A stretch of DNA of 40,080 nt from a virus. Its lineage: Duplodnaviria; Caudoviricetes. The position numbers and the translations under genes were made by a program. Shown one piece after another: positions 5,874-32,836 of this stretch. Position 1 is the stretch's first letter, and the number at the start of each line of letters is the position of its first letter. The DNA lies in IMG/VR virus record IMGVR_UViG_3300019781_000026, positions 1-40,080 of that record. One strand, given 5' to 3'. The notes below the pieces were generated by a model. The model was not told where the DNA came from. It did not search any database and was given only the letters and a program-made list of their open reading frames with translations.

Positions 5874-6263
5874 ATGAGCAGAGTAATTTTTGTAGGGATG
5901 CACAATAAGCCGGGGATGAAACCACTTGATAGTAAAACTATGTCAGGTAAAATGATTGATGCGGTTATAAAAGAATTGCCTTTTCAATGTACAAAATCGA
6001 ACCTCTGCGAAATAGAATATTTTCCTAAAGACAAAAAAGAAATATTGGTAGGCAACATTACTTGGAATCAGAAGTATGAACCTACTCCCGACACAATAAT
6101 TGTTCTGTTAGGCCAATGGGTGCAAAAGAATTTTCTATTAACAGAGGCGCAAATTGTAAAATTACCCCACCCCGCAAGCTGCATGGGCAGTGTGAATAAA
6201 GATGCTTACCTAAAGACGGCTATTGAAAGGATTATGAAGGTTTCTAACCCATCACCTGCTTAA
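5874..6263 (+). CDS. Minimal uracil-DNA glycosylase superfamily protein
   Basis: VIFVGMHNKPG (motif A-like), SGKMID, SNLC, IVLLG and LPHPAS (motif B). Confidence 0.65.
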   Translation: MSRVIFVGMHNKPGMKPLDSKTMSGKMIDAVIKELPFQCTKSNLCEIEYFPKDKKEILVGNITWNQKYEPTPDTIIVLLGQWVQKNFLLTEAQIVKLPHPASCMGSVNKDAYLKTAIERIMKVSNPSPA

Positions 6264-6274
6264 TCTTGTTGTAG

Positions 6275-6790
6275 TTACGCCCCAATCTCAAAGTGCATCC
6301 AATCGTAATTTTTCTCCCGGCCCAATCCTACAAAACCATGCTTATAAAAAATATCATTCATAGCTTTATATTCAGGCCGGGCAAATCTTGCAGTCTTTGA
6401 AGTTTCTTTAAGTGTATTACGGGCCGGGTCAAGGTCAATCGCTATTCCCCAAGCGTGGCGGCTCCATTTCGTTTTAGAACCTCTTTGCAGCCTTACGTTT
6501 ACACAACCGCCGAAAAGGTCAATACCTAACCTGTTTATTTCAGAGTAGCCGTAATGAGCCAGCAAATCAGTAAAGACGGCGGCTAAGTTTGCCGCTATTA
6601 GTTTATGGCATTGAATTTTGCTGACAGTCTTTGTGGTGTCCCAAGCTATCCGCATTGGGTATGGCAGTAATATAGATTGAAGGTTGTCCGGGTCTCCCGG
6701 TTGTCCGTACTTGGCAATAATCTGGCTGTCGTTTAACATAGATTTCTTTTTATGTTTAGCGTATAAATGGTAGTATAAAAATCCTAACAT
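6275..6790 (-). CDS. Endolysin, peptidase M15 family (alternative start 6739)
   Basis: [10 protein letters not shown] (SxHxxGxAxD) and DWMHFE zinc-peptidase motifs. Confidence 0.9.
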
Positions 6791-6792
6791 GG

Positions 6793-6882
6793 TTACGGTT
6801 TTTTACGTTTCTTCTTAATAGCCGGGTAAACCAGCACCCCGTTCTTTCGGTAGCGGCGGCGTATGTTGTGGATTACTATCAT
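6793..6882 (-). CDS. 29-aa strongly cationic peptide [29 protein letters not shown]
   Basis: ATG overlaps the spanin TGA; its TAA lies 2 nt before the endolysin ATG at 6790. Confidence 0.5.
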
Positions 6883-7409
6883 ACTGGCTTTTTTGTTTTG
6901 CGATATATAAAACCAATCAGCCCAAGTGCCAATATTCCCCAAGTTATGAATGATGATTTGCGCCACTTGTTGCGTTTGGATTTCATATCATCGTACTCAG
7001 CGGTACGTTTCTCAAGTTGTGTAATCGCAGATAACCTTTCGATACTGCACAGGTCTAAAGCTGCTGTATTTGTTACCCGCATAGTATCTGTTATGGTAAT
7101 TGTTTTTGTTACCACTTTGCCGGGTAGCTGTACCGTTTTTATAATGGTAACAGTATCTTCAAAAACTTTTACTTCTGTTATTGTGTCAATCGTATTACCC
7201 CACAAAGTATCGTACATGATAACGCTATCACCTTTTAATACTGAATCTTTGCATGGATAAATTCTACTGCAATAATCAGCCCCGATTGCCGGGAAGGTGG
7301 CCACCGCCTTACCATGCTGCACGGTGGCTTTACGCTGATTGTAGCAACCGCCTAATGTCATTACGAATAACAGTAGAACGGTTGCAATAACGAATAGGAG
7401 TAGCCTCAT
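6879..7409 (-). CDS. Unimolecular-spanin-like lipoprotein
   Basis: Lipoprotein signal (LGGC lipobox), beta-rich periplasmic part, coiled coil and C-terminal TM followed by basic residues; adjacent to the endolysin. Confidence 0.75.
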   Translation of the reverse strand: MRLLLFVIATVLLLFVMTLGGCYNQRKATVQHGKAVATFPAIGADYCSRIYPCKDSVLKGDSVIMYDTLWGNTIDTITEVKVFEDTVTIIKTVQLPGKVVTKTITITDTMRVTNTAALDLCSIERLSAITQLEKRTAEYDDMKSKRNKWRKSSFITWGILALGLIGFIYRKTKKPV

Positions 7410-7594
7410 TTGCCTCCCGTGTTAATCGTTGTTGTTGTCATCAATCGCAAAATGATATTGCCGATTGTAAGAACAAAGCCTGCAATCTTCGCTACTTGCC
7501 CCGAAGGGAAAGCACTTGAAAATTCGCCTGCTGCGGCTACTAACAGTCCAATTATGTTGAACCATAGCGTTTTGCTTTCATACCAATTTTTCAT
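7406..7594 (-). CDS. Holin-like 2-TM protein
   Basis: KNWYESKTLWFN N-terminus, two hydrophobic helices, LRLMTT tail; lysis cassette position. Confidence 0.7.
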   Translation of the reverse strand: MKNWYESKTLWFNIIGLLVAAAGEFSSAFPSGQVAKIAGFVLTIGNIILRLMTTTTINTGGK

Positions 7595-7605
7595 ATATCT
7601 AATTT

Positions 7606-7965
7606 TTAGTTTATTGAATCCGCTTTATCTGTTTTTTCATCTATCACATTTCTTATTCTCCTTTCTCCTTTTGTTTTCCCGTACTGAATAACATAAGAAC
7701 CAAAGAAACCAACTACAAAAAAAGAAGTCGCTTTCCATCCTGATATTTTGGAGTACGCCCCTTCAACTTCGTTATAGATAAAGTACCATGCAGCGACTGA
7801 TACAAAGGATAGCATGATGGAAAACCTATCCAAATATACATAATCTTTATACCAATCAAAAGGGACGTTGCCTACTCTTGCTGTCTTGTTCAAGTTAATC
7901 AACTTGCAAAGACAGTGAGCAAAAACGCCCAAAAGTCCGATTAAGAAAATTACAATGATATTCAT
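7606..7965 (-). CDS. 3-TM membrane protein (holin/antiholin candidate)
   Basis: Three hydrophobic segments and a charged C-terminal tail. Confidence 0.65.
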   Translation of the reverse strand: MNIIVIFLIGLLGVFAHCLCKLINLNKTARVGNVPFDWYKDYVYLDRFSIMLSFVSVAAWYFIYNEVEGAYSKISGWKATSFFVVGFFGSYVIQYGKTKGERRIRNVIDEKTDKADSIN

Positions 7966-7968
7966 ACA

Positions 7969-8397
7969 CTAATGATTTTTTAAATATTTTTCTATCCCCT
8001 TCTCACAATCCGCACTCCCGATGGAAGTAATTATAAACCTCACCACCTTACTTCGCCTTGTCAGATAATACAATGTTATTACTAACGCCAATCCACCTAC
8101 TGTAATTTGAAAAACAATATTGTAAATATCGTCTTTCTGAAAAATAAGATAGTAAGCCGCAAACAAACATTCCGCTATCGCTGCCGCCCTGCTTACATAA
8201 CAGAACTTAAAACTAAACGCAACGGCTAACATAAACAACGGGAATAGTAAGTTAGTCCCTACTGCCATGTTAAGATACATTCCGTTCCGGTAATAAAAAT
8301 CAGCGTCAATAAAATAAAGAACATTTGCCAACACTTGCAAGGTTACCAGTATCACCGGAAACCAAGAAATAGTAAGTATTGACATCCTTTTAATCAT
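7969..8397 (-). CDS. 4-TM membrane protein
   Basis: Four hydrophobic segments; translationally coupled. Confidence 0.7.
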   Translation of the reverse strand: MIKRMSILTISWFPVILVTLQVLANVLYFIDADFYYRNGMYLNMAVGTNLLFPLFMLAVAFSFKFCYVSRAAAIAECLFAAYYLIFQKDDIYNIVFQITVGGLALVITLYYLTRRSKVVRFIITSIGSADCEKGIEKYLKNH

Positions 8398-8912
8398 TTG
8401 CTATGTTTAGCGCATCCAACGGAAACAATCACCGTCCCATCTTCTTTACGAGGTACAACGGCATGGTAGTCTATAATTTTCAAAGTTCTTGTCCTGCCTG
8501 TTTTTATCGTATAACTCCCCGAAATATATTTAGTCCCGGTACTTATATTACTACTCCATTCTTTCCATGCCCTTTCCCGGTCTGTATCAATTATAAAATT
8601 AGTCCAGCCCGAACCTTTCATTTGTTCTTGTGTTGTTTCAAACAGTTCGCATAATGCCTCGTTAGCCAATACACATAGTCCCTGATGGTCGCAGATAAAA
8701 AAGCAATCATGCAGTAGCATTACAAGGCCATCTATTTTGCCTGAAACGAAATCAATGCTTTGCGTGTTGGTGTCAAGTTCCTTTTTATTTTCTTCGTATT
8801 CTTCTAAGAACTTTATTAACTCTTTTATCCGGTTGTACATCCAACGTAAGCCGCCAAAGAATACCCCCACTAAGGTTAATAATGTGAGCCATTCTTTCCA
8901 GTTAAAAATCAT
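8394..8912 (-). CDS. Membrane-anchored PAS-domain protein
   Basis: N-terminal TM, coiled coil, then FFICDHQGLCVLANEALCELFETTQEQMKGSGWTNFIIDTDRE...EDGTVIVSVG, a classic PAS pattern. Confidence 0.8.
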   Translation of the reverse strand: MIFNWKEWLTLLTLVGVFFGGLRWMYNRIKELIKFLEEYEENKKELDTNTQSIDFVSGKIDGLVMLLHDCFFICDHQGLCVLANEALCELFETTQEQMKGSGWTNFIIDTDRERAWKEWSSNISTGTKYISGSYTIKTGRTRTLKIIDYHAVVPRKEDGTVIVSVGCAKHSK

Positions 8913-9130
8913 TTACTTGTCTTTGTTCTAAAAAGCCATTTATCTAATCTATTGCCTGCCCATCTGCTAAGTTGAAAAAATGTGATACCCCCGAAAAGCA
9001 TTAATACTAATATTAACACCCCCGTAAATACCGATAAGGCCAATGTATCAAATAGACCGTGATGAAAAGCCAACGATACCGCCCTTTCCCCTGTTCCGAT
9101 ACTGCCCAAAATAAAAGATGTTTTACTCAT
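8909..9130 (-). CDS. Small membrane protein
   Basis: Long hydrophobic segment and basic C-terminus. Confidence 0.6.
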   Translation of the reverse strand: MSKTSFILGSIGTGERAVSLAFHHGLFDTLALSVFTGVLILVLMLFGGITFFQLSRWAGNRLDKWLFRTKTSK

Positions 9131-27613: not shown

Positions 27614-28968
27614 ACGCTTGTCGCTGTCATTACAAATTTAGGTTTTAATTCGAACCACATTCGCATTAATATCGCATCCCAAAAGTCAGGACTTCGCCCG
27701 ATAGCTTCTTTAATCTTATCTTTTGGCATTAACCCTTTCTTCATATCGCTATCCAAAAGTTTCTGCTTCACCTGTTCAAACTCCTCAATAATCAAAGGCT
27801 GCATCCAATCTTCACACTCCAAATATAAACCATTTGTATTAATTATTTCAGCCATCCTAAAACCACATTGACTTTTGATGTTGTCAAAATTTTCAACAAC
27901 CGGCTTCCCATTTGCATCTAACGGTTTCTTCGGATCAGCCATTGGCCGGGCATTATTGGTAAATCCTTTAAACCCTCCGAAGTCCTCAACTCCGGAACCC
28001 ATGCCATCGCTATCAACCAGCACATCTGACTTGCCGCATCCCATTCGATGCCGGGCCGCCTCAATATTAGTAGTCGATACCGTTAGTTTCTCTTTTGAAT
28101 AAGCCTGCACTTTACCCCTCATCCCGTTCCACTCTATTATCACAATCCTATCACCACCTAACCGGGCTATGTCAGCGGTGATACACTTACGCCCTTCCGG
28201 TACATGATTGTTTGTGAATACATCAACCGCCTTTTCGTAATCAATTAAACAGGCGGGATCCGTATCAGTTTCCCACTCACCATGCAGCAACCTTTTTTTC
28301 TCATTCGTGTTTAATACCCGCTCCAAATTTTCCAGGTAGCCATCGGGTAGCCGCTTATTATCCTTTGGGAGGGCTTGCACAAATTTCTTCCATACATCTA
28401 AGGTTCCTGACTTATATGGTTTATAGTAATCCCGATATAAATAATTTTTAGAAGGGTTACAAGTTTGTAACAATTTAGGGTGCAACCCGTAAACATCATT
28501 TTTCCAACGGCCTATACTTGCCGATAGATTATTTTTAGCCGCCTCAACTAATTCCCCAGCTTCCTCTATAAAACCCCGTGTCATCTGCATTGAACCGAAA
28601 CGATAGTAATCAGGGTCGCTTGGGGCGTAATCAGCATCGAGTAAATAAATACGGGACTTGTTGTTTAACTCAAAATAATTATCCTGCCCGTTGTACTTCC
28701 AATAAGCTGATGTAATCTTCCAATGTGCGAACACTTCATGTATGGAAGGGATAGTAAACTTACGGATATTAGTAAGCGATTTTCTGGCAATGAAGTAGGA
28801 CGTTTCCGGGTAAATAAAAGCGTCCCCGAAAATAAGGGACACCCCTAAGTAAGACTTACCACTACCTTTTGACCCACCGTAAACAATGTCGGACGTTTCT
28901 TTATCTAACCAATACCGGGCAACCTCTTTCTGCTTTTCATTGCCATATGTGTTGAAGGTTAATTTCAT
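27610..28968 (-). CDS. terL: Terminase large subunit
   Basis: Walker A GGSKGSGKS, Walker B FIEEA, TCNP coupling motif, nuclease ADIA...D and SPDFWDA. Confidence 0.95.
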   Translation of the reverse strand: MKLTFNTYGNEKQKEVARYWLDKETSDIVYGGSKGSGKSYLGVSLIFGDAFIYPETSYFIARKSLTNIRKFTIPSIHEVFAHWKITSAYWKYNGQDNYFELNNKSRIYLLDADYAPSDPDYYRFGSMQMTRGFIEEAGELVEAAKNNLSASIGRWKNDVYGLHPKLLQTCNPSKNYLYRDYYKPYKSGTLDVWKKFVQALPKDNKRLPDGYLENLERVLNTNEKKRLLHGEWETDTDPACLIDYEKAVDVFTNNHVPEGRKCITADIARLGGDRIVIIEWNGMRGKVQAYSKEKLTVSTTNIEAARHRMGCGKSDVLVDSDGMGSGVEDFGGFKGFTNNARPMADPKKPLDANGKPVVENFDNIKSQCGFRMAEIINTNGLYLECEDWMQPLIIEEFEQVKQKLLDSDMKKGLMPKDKIKEAIGRSPDFWDAILMRMWFELKPKFVMTATSV

Positions 28969-29585
28969 TCGTAGATCGAAGGTACCGGGTAAAGTGCCTC
29001 AAAGTTAATAAACTTCGCCGTGTGTTCATTCGTGCTGAAAAACGGGCCGCTTGCAACTTGCCCTTTCTGCCTGATTTTACAGTCGGGCAATTTAACACCA
29101 CCACCGATAAAATTACCGTACAAGGATTTACTTAAGTATTCTTTATTAAACCAATCTACATCATTCGACTCCCGGTATTTCTCCCGGTTAATAACCATTG
29201 GTGTATGTATATCGTAAAACAATCCATCCGGGTAAACATTCATAGTATTGTTACGCCTTACGTTATACTTACCAAATACTTTTGCATCCAATAAAAAGCA
29301 GTTATAATAATTCGGCAATGTTTCGTCAAAATCTTCCCTGGCAAAAATATCGTCATTAGTATATAGAAAATCTTCGTAAGGCGACCGGCTTATTTTAGTC
29401 ATTATATTAAACTCCTTCCGGGGGGTATCTTCCATTGGTATAAATTCCCCTTTGTACCAAAATGGCTTTTCACCAATAAGGCAAACGCCTGATAATGGTT
29501 TGAAGTGCTTAACCAGCGACCTGATTGCATAACGCAACTCTAAACCGTTGTTAATGCAGTTACGGTATGGTATGACCGCTTTTAT
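28965..29585 (-). CDS. Stealth-family hexose-1-phosphate transferase-like protein (5' end lacks ATG)
   Basis: ELRYAIRS, FLYTNDDIF, HTPM and FFSTN...YPVPSIYE resemble Stealth CR2-CR4. The frame extends upstream of TTG 29537 as IKAVIPYRNC. Confidence 0.7.
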   Translation of the reverse strand: MKAVIPYRNCINNGLELRYAIRSLVKHFKPLSGVCLIGEKPFWYKGEFIPMEDTPRKEFNIMTKISRSPYEDFLYTNDDIFAREDFDETLPNYYNCFLLDAKVFGKYNVRRNNTMNVYPDGLFYDIHTPMVINREKYRESNDVDWFNKEYLSKSLYGNFIGGGVKLPDCKIRQKGQVASGPFFSTNEHTAKFINFEALYPVPSIYE

Positions 29586-30427
29586 TTTAAAAATTCTTTA
29601 TACCGTTCTATTAACTTCCCGTTGCTATGTGCCTCATAAATTGGGCATAACGTATCTGCAAAGTCTCTAATTATATTATCAATAGTATTATTTTCAACCC
29701 GTATCGTTTCAGGTAAGTGCCGGAACATTTCACTATCACTTACACCAATAGGACGTTTAACAGACAAAGCGTAATCAATAGCTGAGGATAACCCCCTGCC
29801 ATGTGATTGCCGGTATAAAAATAAATTTATAGTATTCGCTGCCAAAAAATCTAACAAATCTGATTGACTTAAATAATCATGGTTAATCTCAACCTCAATA
29901 CTGCTGCCTTTTAAGATAGCCCTCACCTTGTCAGCCTCCCGTCTTGCTAAGTATCCGTCCCTGTCACCGTACTCAGCGAAAGGTATATTTAATTTAATAG
30001 TAGCAGATTTATATTGCGCTTTCACTATTTCGGCTATCCGGGGGAAGTTTTTATCAGGGAACCCAAAACCAAAACTACCCACCGTAAAATTGTTTGACGG
30101 GGTAACATTATCGCAATTAAATAATGGTCTTATACTGGTATCAATTATTTTGTCAGGCGTAAACTGCATAGCAGCTTCATGAAAAATAGCGTAATGTTTT
30201 ATACTTCTATCAATAACCCCGTCAGTAACAAAGCCTAATGTAGCGTAATGGTAATTGTATAAAACTATGTCGGGTCTTGAGATGGCAACCGCCTGCAAAT
30301 AATCAACTTCATTATTTACCTCTGACAATTCAATATCGAAATGAGGTTTAAGTATGTTGAATAATCTTAAACCATAGTCAGCAACCCCGCATTGTTTAGC
30401 CTTACGGCTTATCATTAATATTTTCAT
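29582..30427 (-). CDS. GT-B (GT4-like) glycosyltransferase
   Basis: CGVADY, SFGFGFPDKNF and GLSSAIDYALSVKRPIGVS motifs. Confidence 0.75.
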   Translation of the reverse strand: MKILMISRKAKQCGVADYGLRLFNILKPHFDIELSEVNNEVDYLQAVAISRPDIVLYNYHYATLGFVTDGVIDRSIKHYAIFHEAAMQFTPDKIIDTSIRPLFNCDNVTPSNNFTVGSFGFGFPDKNFPRIAEIVKAQYKSATIKLNIPFAEYGDRDGYLARREADKVRAILKGSSIEVEINHDYLSQSDLLDFLAANTINLFLYRQSHGRGLSSAIDYALSVKRPIGVSDSEMFRHLPETIRVENNTIDNIIRDFADTLCPIYEAHSNGKLIERYKEFLK

Positions 30428-30908
30428 ACCAATCTTCGTAAATTAACCCAAAATAATTTGGGTCTAAACATTTAACGTCTTTATGCGATCTATTAAATCC
30501 CTTTGTAGTAAGGTACTCATAAATTCTTTGCTGCCGGTCACTTCCCTCCAAATATTGGTTGTGTTCAATAGTGATAAACCGTACATGGCTCCTTTCAAAA
30601 TTAAACTCTTTTATTACTTGTTCTTCTTCACCATCAACATCAATAGATAAGTAGTCAATAACCTTTGGCATCCCTGGAATAACAATTCCCCTACCCGCAT
30701 ACATTTTTAATGTAGCACATTGTCTATTTAATTTCAATTTTTCAAACGCCCCGCCCGGTTCAACACATACACCCTCCCAGCCTGCTGTTTCTAAGGCGTA
30801 TGTATTGCTGCTTTCAATCCCATCATGCGCACCAATATCTACAAAAAAACCATTAGGCCCGAATCTGTTTAATACATATTCATCCTGCCCGGCCTGACTA
30901 TAAAACAT
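30402..30908 (-). CDS. FkbM-family SAM-dependent methyltransferase (start revised to 30908)
   Basis: YSQAGQD, FFVDIGAHDG..SNT, VEP, IDYLSIDVDG and ITIEH motifs. Confidence 0.85.
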   Translation of the reverse strand: MFYSQAGQDEYVLNRFGPNGFFVDIGAHDGIESSNTYALETAGWEGVCVEPGGAFEKLKLNRQCATLKMYAGRGIVIPGMPKVIDYLSIDVDGEEEQVIKEFNFERSHVRFITIEHNQYLEGSDRQQRIYEYLTTKGFNRSHKDVKCLDPNYFGLIYEDWYENINDKP

Positions 30909-31506
30909 AACTAAACTTTTTAAATATTTTTTCTTCTCCAATATAAGCCTTCGCATCCACCTGGTTTAATACTCCTATTCGTGGGACATCTAAGGCATGA
31001 GCAATAGCAAGAGGTAATGATTGCTCCCCTGCAAAGTGATTACAGGATGCAATAATTGTAAATAATTCAGATAGCGACACGAAGCTATTACCTATGTCCT
31101 CGCCTTCTACTTCCGGCCACCTTCCGGCTCTTGCAGGGTGTAAGCTAAAATGTGCAACGTTACGGCTCGATCCTTTTGGCCACTTCATCCATGCTATTCC
31201 GTTAATAGGGACATTAAACATCTTTGAAAGTAATACTGTCCAATTATCACTATACGCCTTACTTCGCCACATATTTAGATTTATTGCATCTTCACCGTTA
31301 TACACTTGAACACTATTAGCGTAATCTTGGAATAATAACACAGGCCTTAATTCTTCTACCGTTTTATCAATATCGTAAATAAACCCGTCTGAATGTAAAT
31401 CCCGGCGATCTGTTATATATAAATCATGTTTACCTGGTGTATTAGCCACCACATACATCATGTGAATTAAATCACCCATCCGACCACCTAAAATAAATTT
31501 AGCCAT
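30898..31506 (-). CDS. GT9-like (heptosyltransferase-like) glycosyltransferase
   Basis: GRMGDLI N-terminal motif; F.G.QS.PLAIAHALDVP C-terminal motif. Confidence 0.65.
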   Translation of the reverse strand: MAKFILGGRMGDLIHMMYVVANTPGKHDLYITDRRDLHSDGFIYDIDKTVEELRPVLLFQDYANSVQVYNGEDAINLNMWRSKAYSDNWTVLLSKMFNVPINGIAWMKWPKGSSRNVAHFSLHPARAGRWPEVEGEDIGNSFVSLSELFTIIASCNHFAGEQSLPLAIAHALDVPRIGVLNQVDAKAYIGEEKIFKKFSYVL

Positions 31507-32836
31507 AAGATTTACCTTGCATAGTTGACTTATAATCAGGATTGCTTACCCAGCCATCCGCAAACTCATTCGTATTTGGGAAGTAAGGAGTATAATCATA
31601 CACCGGGAAATTATATTGATGCCACCCATAACCGATAAACCCCTCCGCTTCGTGCCTATGTGTTAAAGCTGGTTTTGGCCACGTCCGCATTAATTCGCAA
31701 TGTGTCCAAAAAAAAGTACCAGCAAACATAAAGTTACCCACTTTGTGTTCTGGCATTGCACCTATAATCGGTTGAATCCAATGGCAACCTACTGCCCCGT
31801 GTGTTTTTAATTTCTCAACACAATCAGACCAATTAATAACGTTCCAATAAATCATAGACCTTCTCCAACGAATGTTAACCGGGGAAGAATTACTCGACCC
31901 CTTACTGTGAGCATAAAGAATTAACCCATCGTTTAATTTAGAGAACTCCCACATAGGTATCTGTGTCACTTGTTCCCAACCGTTATCGGCTTCAGCTATG
32001 ATATTAAAAAAGATACCTTGCTCAACTAAAAACTGCTTTACCGCTTTTCTATTTCTTATACTACCTACAAGTCCAATGTTAAAAGTAGTAAGGTTGTCAA
32101 TCAATCCTTTTCTTAAGGCGGCTATATGTTCAGTAACGGCATCTCTCCAGTTACCATCGGCAAATACATGATAGAAATGGTGCATTATTATTTCTTTTTG
32201 TTCTTGTTTAAATACGCTTATATGTTCACTCCCCCTTTCCAATCTTTTACCATAACCAGTATCCCATAACGGAGAAACGTTTATTGCCGATACTTGTACG
32301 CATTGCTTCCCCATCTTTAAAACTTGACGGGTTAACGTATGGCCGCCTCCCCTATGTTCAAACCATAACCCTTGCTCCCTGGTCATCACCGGATCACTTG
32401 GGAATTTTATATTAAGTGAACACTCTTTAGTGATGCAATACGCAACGGTCCTAACGTGGGTAGCTACTGCCTGTGAAATTTGCATGGCTGCAATTCCCAC
32501 ATCTGTTTGCATAGCATTTAAGAAAGGGGTAATAAAATCTTTTTGCATTGGGAAAACATCATCTGTAATCCAAAGTAAGCACTCCCAGTCGTTAGGGAAA
32601 TTTTCAAGTCGTTCTTTGAATACGTCTTGAACTGCTCCTATGTCCCGGCCTATGTTGTGACGTGGAATATATTTAACGCCGGGAACGTTACATATTTCTT
32701 TGCATAGTTCTTTTTCTTCGCCGGTATGTATTATGTGTAAATCAATCCCGTGTTGTTCGCATTGCTGCCAGCAGTATAGCCACCTTTTAAGGTTGCTGTA
32801 TCTGTTATAGACTATAACGGCAACGGCTACTTTCAT
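31499..32836 (-). CDS. Two-domain glycosyltransferase (GT-A/RgpF-like N domain plus second GT-like domain)
   Basis: VIVYNR, NIGRDIGA and TDD in the N half; ILYAHSKG, WRR.M and GTFFW in the C half. Confidence 0.7.
   Translation of the reverse strand: MKVAVAVIVYNRYSNLKRWLYCWQQCEQHGIDLHIIHTGEEKELCKEICNVPGVKYIPRHNIGRDIGAVQDVFKERLENFPNDWECLLWITDDVFPMQKDFITPFLNAMQTDVGIAAMQISQAVATHVRTVAYCITKECSLNIKFPSDPVMTREQGLWFEHRGGGHTLTRQVLKMGKQCVQVSAINVSPLWDTGYGKRLERGSEHISVFKQEQKEIIMHHFYHVFADGNWRDAVTEHIAALRKGLIDNLTTFNIGLVGSIRNRKAVKQFLVEQGIFFNIIAEADNGWEQVTQIPMWEFSKLNDGLILYAHSKGSSNSSPVNIRWRRSMIYWNVINWSDCVEKLKTHGAVGCHWIQPIIGAMPEHKVGNFMFAGTFFWTHCELMRTWPKPALTHRHEAEGFIGYGWHQYNFPVYDYTPYFPNTNEFADGWVSNPDYKSTMQGKSYG

Follow-up and report, generated by a model that had tools for sequence, protein, structure and literature searches.

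What could a PAS domain do at the end of a membrane helix, close to the lysis genes of a phage and with no output domain attached to it? This question is raised by a 172-aa protein encoded at positions 8394..8912 (minus strand) of the window, i.e. the whole stretch of DNA that was analysed, a complete virus record, 40,080 bp long and bearing direct terminal repeats.

The protein and its genomic setting

Portal, capsid, head-completion and terminase families detected with Pfam among the window ORFs indicate a tailed phage. The capsids closest to that of the window are those of Flavobacterium phages (48% identity) and, for this reason, the host is probably a Gram-negative member of the Bacteroidota. 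The late operon, on the minus strand, runs from tail-fibre-like genes through ORFs 9130, 8909, 8394, 7969, 7606, 7406, 6879 and 6275. The PAS gene is joined by 4-nt ATGA overlaps to both of its neighbours, a 73-aa ORF with a single TM (8909..9130, minus strand) and a 142-aa ORF with three predicted TM segments (7969..8397, minus strand), the latter matching no family in Pfam and PHROG scans. Further along the same strand lie a 119-aa membrane ORF that is holin-like by size and position only (7606..7965), and a 62-aa holin-like ORF (7406..7594) with a weak match to the holin family phrog_34682 (E 0.0065) and homologues that immediately follow the PAS gene in two other loci (L150 and L163). A 176-aa candidate unimolecular spanin follows (6879..7409, minus strand), called from sequence features, as Pfam and PHROG gave no match: it has a signal stretch ending in LGGC22 and a C-terminal hydrophobic stretch, which we take to be the layout of such spanins. 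The M15 peptidase endolysin (6275..6790, minus strand; Peptidase_M15_4, E 6e-10; phrog_17001, E 3e-54) probably starts at Met18, phrog_6584 aligning to residues 18–170, and a search for a SAR-type hydrophobic N-terminus in this protein detected none. The coupling of the PAS gene to membrane protein genes upstream of holin, spanin and endolysin genes, noticed in an earlier sequence-only reading of the locus, is therefore confirmed, with the holin and spanin genes described as holin-like and spanin-like. The same reading had found no kinase or cyclase, and Pfam scans of the window ORFs (14 + 42) agree, with kinase, GGDEF/EAL, cyclase and receiver families in 0/56. A promoter scan performed at chance level (14 found, 12.5 expected).

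Two other parts of the window deserve mention. Positions 28965-32836 (minus strand) contain glycosyltransferase-like ORFs and an FkbM methyltransferase gene, flanked by small-terminase-like and large terminase genes, and glycosylation of the virion or of the host surface is a possible function of this block. A 129-aa ORF with a weak match to the UDG superfamily (E 0.076) converges on the endolysin gene (5874-6263, plus strand).

ORF translation, Pfam, AlphaFold and Foldseek all contribute to the description of the 172-aa product as a TM-helix-PAS protein. A single membrane helix is predicted at residues 9–25 (8838..8888, minus strand), on the basis of hydrophobicity and the basic residues that follow; this stretch is only moderately hydrophobic (Kyte-Doolittle 1.58 over 17 residues) and escapes detection with a 19-residue window and a threshold of 1.5. 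An N-terminal hydrophobic stretch is present in 49 of 55 homologues, with the C-terminal flank the more positive in 47 of these 49, consistent with a predicted topology of one N-terminal TMD, N-out/C-in, and with the cytoplasmic C-terminus proposed earlier. The putative cytoplasmic helix (residues 26–66; 8715..8837, minus strand) is 37% charged and displays a heptad-like hydrophobic stripe. AlphaFold, supplied with a 15-sequence alignment, modelled a single helix over residues 5–66 and a complete PAS fold over residues 70–170 (8403..8705, minus strand), with a mean pLDDT of 91.3. Three Pfam PAS models scored above their curated cut-offs, PAS_3 (PF08447; 28.6 bits, cut-off 25.6), PAS (PF00989; 26.8, cut-off 22.6) and PF08448; the top Foldseek matches for the model were PAS domains (E 2e-8), and a PDB sequence search gave weak PAS matches. 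The complete PAS-like domain with five Cys suspected from the sequence thus passes the check by structure prediction. The five Cys lie at positions 70, 74, 80, 88 and 167, but conservation is limited to C74, C80 and C88; M98-x-G-x-G-W103, W119 and Y134 are also conserved. The protein ends with the PAS domain and has no output domain, and 0/55 family members match an output-domain family.

Distribution of the family and origin of its parts

A profile search of a word-indexed protein set returned 17 other family proteins. Among the best 150 profile matches from 1.84 billion representatives, 42 were proteins of 168–263 aa with the same layout, the other 108 being longer and nearly all multi-PAS. 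Short members made up 15/120 and 27/28 of the viral DNA-pattern matches and 30/33 of the metagenome matches; there was no stand-alone member among the 10 GTDB matches, all of which (10/10) were multidomain proteins of 680–2679 aa. The nearest Atlas clusters are 99–100% viral. The TM-helix-PAS family is, thus, phage-associated and widespread. The pooled family comprises 94 sequences, non-redundant at 70%, from viral and metagenome contigs; conservation at G78, C80, N84, M98, G100, G102 and W103 is partly circular in this set, these positions being partly fixed by the DNA patterns, and Cys counts were therefore redone on 55 profile-found proteins.

Relatives were sought in other collections. Searches of viral-contig loci with P0001, A1 and A2 yielded no confirmed relative. 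Against 50,697 cultured-phage records, tblastn gave nothing at E 0.01–0.1 with three full-length members, weak N-terminal matches only (E 0.3–0.8) with a fourth and nothing at E 5 with the N-terminal 67 residues of the window protein; no TM-helix-PAS fusion was found in these records. When longer fused forms were sought, two proteins were retrieved, in which the match spanned 34–40% of the query; this is weak evidence. Two members, L175:6626-7387 and P0134, have a Cys-rich C-terminal extension after the PAS, with two CxxC/CxH-like motifs.

The PAS domain is under purifying selection: of 13 pairs compared, 8 had a usable dS, with a dN/dS from the PAS onward of about 0.07–0.18 (four other pairs were saturated and one was nearly identical). 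A single PAS consensus is common to phages that differ widely in their base composition and in the genes they carry. Both C74 and C80 are present in 41/55 members, versus 9/388 cellular PAS domains chosen with the same profile. In the canonical PAS register, we take these two residues to be cross-strand neighbours at the edge of the pocket, an arrangement that would be compatible with a redox dithiol or with a metal site. W119 is found in 83/94 and Y134 in 93/94 family sequences. No signature of a known cofactor-binding class was established. The flavin-bonding Cys of LOV/FMN domains is absent, the equivalent stretch, which is presumably in register with the LOV helix-E Cys motif, being G-x-G-W in 94/94 sequences (a count partly selected by the DNA patterns). 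According to a published account, heme PAS domains (FixL/DosP, Aer2) have a His that is invariant, located in either helix F or helix E, and FAD PAS domains (NifL, Aer, MmoS) have a helix-F Trp plus His and/or Asn (PMC10468136). Here, His reaches at most 6/94 at any column of residues 95-107 and 109-125, and 16/94 at residue 108. The domain may bind FAD, W119 being the putative counterpart of the NifL Trp, but W119 is also present in 195/426 cellular PAS domains, and no His is conserved with it.

The anchor and helix are related in sequence to PAS-less single-helix proteins of phage lysis cassettes. Residues 1–54 of the window protein match phrog_1009 (E 2.2e-6), and a PHROG scan of the 55 members assigned 15 to phrog_9869, 10 to phrog_1009 and two to phrog_15431. 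An N-terminal, PAS-free profile matched Thermobifida phage P1312 gp40 (E 8e-8), Wheelbite gp68 (3e-7), Mufasa8 gp22 (1e-6) and Javan14 gp58 (6e-4) among 8,990 ORFs; these E-values are optimistic, since the four loci were pre-selected from weak tblastn matches, a pre-selection of which the PHROG scan is independent. P1312 gp40 (phrog_9869) overlaps an amidase gene, Javan14 gp58 (phrog_1009) is followed immediately by a holin and a lysin, and phrog_15431, the family of Wheelbite gp68 and Mufasa8 gp22, is annotated as holin, although the "holin" labels of these PAS-less relatives are database annotations. The proteins of the three families resemble the TM-helix-PAS proteins in anchor-helix sequence, in their position in or near lysis cassettes and in an NGG-type helix motif present in about half of the family (28/55; 50/94 with a looser pattern), and differ from them in having no PAS; the motif is absent from the 172-aa protein of the window. 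P1312 gp40 (L192:2704-3147), a 147-aa single-TM helix protein of phrog_9869, carries the label "sensory protein kinase CreC", which is likely to be a mis-annotation.

An origin in phage proteins, rather than in kinases, is also suggested by the distribution of the N-terminal module. Its profile matched one of 110 long PAS proteins (P0037, TM-coil-PAS-PAS, without a kinase domain), and a second N-terminal alignment, searched against 401 genomes of the Parapedobacter phylum, gave no credible match: its one match (E 4e-4) was a 379-aa ORF that was read as an aminotransferase and judged to be due to chance. P0037 itself is a 363-aa family member arranged as TM-helix-PAS-helix-PAS, without an output domain.

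Neighbouring lysis genes

The 70 loci collected fall into 45 clusters including the window, of which 28 have at least 4.3 kb of flank and 16 have short flanks. An endolysin-type gene lies within about 4 kb in 10/28 well-flanked clusters, or in 12/28 if putative ones are counted, and at least seven different catalytic types are represented. These genes encode CHAP-like enzymes in L050, L144 and L145 (just below the cut-off in L050 and L145; identified with phmmer and PHROG in L144), M15 enzymes in L126 and L157, and also in the L134 cluster (there in the cluster mate L129, on the opposite strand), a muramidase in L150, a GH108 enzyme in L165, a destabilase in L166 (opposite strand) and an Amidase_3 in L175, with putative endolysins in L137 (DUF5675) and L151 (GH75). 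Endolysins were also found in 4/16 short-flank clusters (L011, L161, L176 and L177). The controls, initially a set about half of which was one repeated gene family, were cut to 22 independent loci and contained one amidase, one holin and one SH3 protein (1–3/22). Enrichment over these controls gave a Fisher p of 0.014, 0.033 or 0.11, depending on the count, the strictest (10/28 versus 3/22, p 0.11) not being significant, and scanning depth was unequal, the hitless test loci having received an extra six-frame scan (180 of 201 extra ORFs) and the controls none. The link between the family and lysis genes is, thus, a moderate enrichment and not a rule. The linkage to endolysins anticipated from the window holds in unrelated phages in 10–12 of the 28 clusters, with no endolysin recognised in the other 16–18/28.

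Other aspects of the neighbourhood are less specific. Small membrane neighbours are not significantly enriched (22/39 versus 7/21, p 0.11). The holin-like genes beside family members are mostly unrelated to one another, which argues against one specific partner. ORF 7606 and the neighbour in L162 have no detectable relation (E 1.4). In the reverse test, no PAS was found in 86 loci carrying relatives of the window endolysin or holin-like gene (0/86), so the PAS is dispensable for this type of cassette and constitutes an optional addition. PAS-less TM-helix genes do occur in loci with related endolysin or holin-like genes and, in L194, one occupies the same slot, directly before a related holin-like gene (78% identity).

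Several of the loci without a recognised endolysin (L016, L062, L133, L140, L139, L146 and L164) have HNH, ERCC4, ClpP, terminase or sugar-biosynthesis genes around the PAS gene. In L016, L062, L133 and L140, where no nearby lysis gene was recognised, the PAS gene lies in a block of sigma-like, HTH, HNH, ERCC4 and ClpP genes that precedes long packaging-type genes. The complete genome G005 encodes, at L282:2821-12577, a thymidylate synthase, an amino acid:DNA transferase, a 5-hmdU kinase, an aldo-keto reductase and an FAD oxidoreductase, which constitute a DNA hypermodification set.

Proposed role and competing explanations

By analogy with known systems, there is about an even chance that the 172-aa protein is an accessory lysis regulator of the LysF1b kind that has gained a PAS input. 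Its anchor and helix, related to PAS-less phage lysis-cassette proteins, would have acquired a PAS, and this PAS would tune the timing of holin triggering, the signal travelling inwards from the PAS to the membrane helix. No enzyme output would be needed, because the PAS would signal to its own membrane helix. A more specific version, in which a thiol- or ligand-sensing PAS on a single-helix lysis regulator lets the holin clock read the cytoplasmic redox or energy state at the protein level, with the membrane helix as the only output, is tentative and somewhat doubtful.

LysF1b of mycobacteriophages (Girr gp35, NormanBulbieJr gp33; DUF2746/PF10874) shares with the window protein a single N-terminal TMD, a predicted N-out/C-in topology, basic residues after the TMD, a charged cytoplasmic helix and an ATGA overlap with a membrane gene of the lysis cassette (PMC13056207). 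The 37% of charged residues over residues 26–66 falls within the 30–50% that characterises the LysF1b helix. LysF1b is a 92–150-aa protein consisting of the helix only, whereas the window protein has 172 aa, a C-terminal PAS and a probable Gram-negative Bacteroidota host, and 0/55 family members match DUF2746/PF10874 at E<=0.01. Lysis is efficient only if LysF1b is present, and this protein seems to act on a 2-TMD partner as an activator, not as an inhibitor (PMC13056207); LysA2b of phage D29 similarly promotes lysis with activation of a 2-TMD partner (10.64898/2026.08.27.747656). The antiholin envisaged in the sequence-only reading is not, therefore, the best analogue, as the characterised proteins of this topology promote lysis.

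Other systems resemble the protein in part. The gp25 releasin of phage Mu (DUF2730) also has a single N-out/C-in TMD, a cytoplasmic domain and an endolysin gene nearby (PMC9239132), but its partner is a SAR endolysin, whereas the window endolysin has no SAR-type N-terminus and holin-like genes are present; none of the 55 members matches DUF2730 (PF10805). VqmA of vibriophage VP882 is likewise a phage PAS sensor linking host killing to a host signal, but is a soluble PAS-HTH transcription factor acting in the lysis-lysogeny switch, whereas the window protein is predicted to be membrane-anchored (PMC8284805). The families matched by the 55 members include no HTH DNA-binding domain. The signal for the RI protein of phage T4 is superinfection, and its site of action is the periplasm. 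T4 lysis inhibition, with holin T and antiholin RI, is another case of signal-dependent holin timing (PMC11413866), but RI has no PAS and no sequence relation to the window protein was found.

The protein may, alternatively, be a lysis-cassette membrane protein in which the PAS is a non-sensing cap for constitutive dimerisation or folding, which seems unlikely. PAS domains do mediate dimerisation, as in VqmA (PMC8284805), the helix-F His is unconserved and the LOV-type Cys absent, PAS-less relatives occupy the same slot, and purifying selection is compatible with any structural role. However, the PAS-less relatives do without a cap, and the conservation of C74/C80 (41/55 versus 9/388), W119 (83/94) and Y134 (93/94) exceeds the obvious needs of one.

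A late-expressed membrane sensor that does something other than time lysis (for example, by serving in superinfection exclusion, in assembly at the membrane or in the control of packaging), riding in a cluster of membrane genes of the late operon, is quite improbable, even though members adjoin terminase genes (L139, L146), lie in the HNH/ERCC4/ClpP block (L016, L062, L133, L140) or are located between tail-fibre-like and head-tail genes (L077, L127). The absence of an endolysin near L127 is uninformative, because 0/61 ORFs of 90–520 aa in G005, the complete genome that holds this locus, match an endolysin family, its lysis genes simply being unrecognised, and a 74-aa membrane ORF directly follows the PAS gene there; moreover, D29 LysA2b is also encoded away from its lysis cassette (10.64898/2026.08.27.747656). 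The kinase decoy envisaged earlier, taken here as a dominant-negative partner of a host PAS histidine kinase or cyclase that blocks an envelope-stress or defence response, is very unlikely: the PAS does resemble that of cellular kinases (longer proteins, nearly all multi-PAS, account for 108 of the 150 best profile matches) and kinase input segments share the TM-helix-PAS layout, but the N-terminal module is nearly absent from the long PAS proteins and Parapedobacter-phylum genomes searched, as described above, and a PAS consensus constant across phages of different composition and gene content is a poor fit to the tracking of separate host kinases.

Both the burst size and the fitness of a phage depend on when lysis occurs, and a regulator with a gained PAS input would therefore be of interest. 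External inputs into lysis known so far are superinfection, as in lysis inhibition by T4, and switches at the level of transcription, of which VqmA is an example; fusion of a PAS to a membrane helix of the lysis cassette would create a post-translational link from host physiology to holin triggering. A full-text literature search, with most subscription papers outside its reach, found no publication describing a lysis-cassette protein with a PAS, and the term "PAS" does not occur in the accessible text of PMC9671378. Some of the PAS-less relatives discussed above may be among the LysF1b-like proteins in the supplements of PMC13056207. The protein is real and represents an undescribed variant of the single-helix lysis-cassette proteins, with a putative sensing role. 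Natural versions with and without the PAS, together with the conserved Cys pair, make the idea directly testable, and provide a handle on the large uncharacterised families phrog_1009 and phrog_9869.

Two further observations concern genes next to the PAS gene in other phages. In one subgroup (L137:7362-7956, L163:4973-5582, L167:1657-2263, L176:2909-3524 and L150:3179-3589, the last sharing one gene of the pair detectably), two conserved small membrane genes form a pair immediately upstream of it, and their products are candidate dedicated partners of the PAS protein. Close relatives differ in the gene that converges on the PAS-holin pair, which is phrog_3000 in L134:5837-6382 and L123:1507-2052 and an M15 endolysin gene in L129:1701-2186, which suggests that phrog_3000 is perhaps an unrecognised endolysin.
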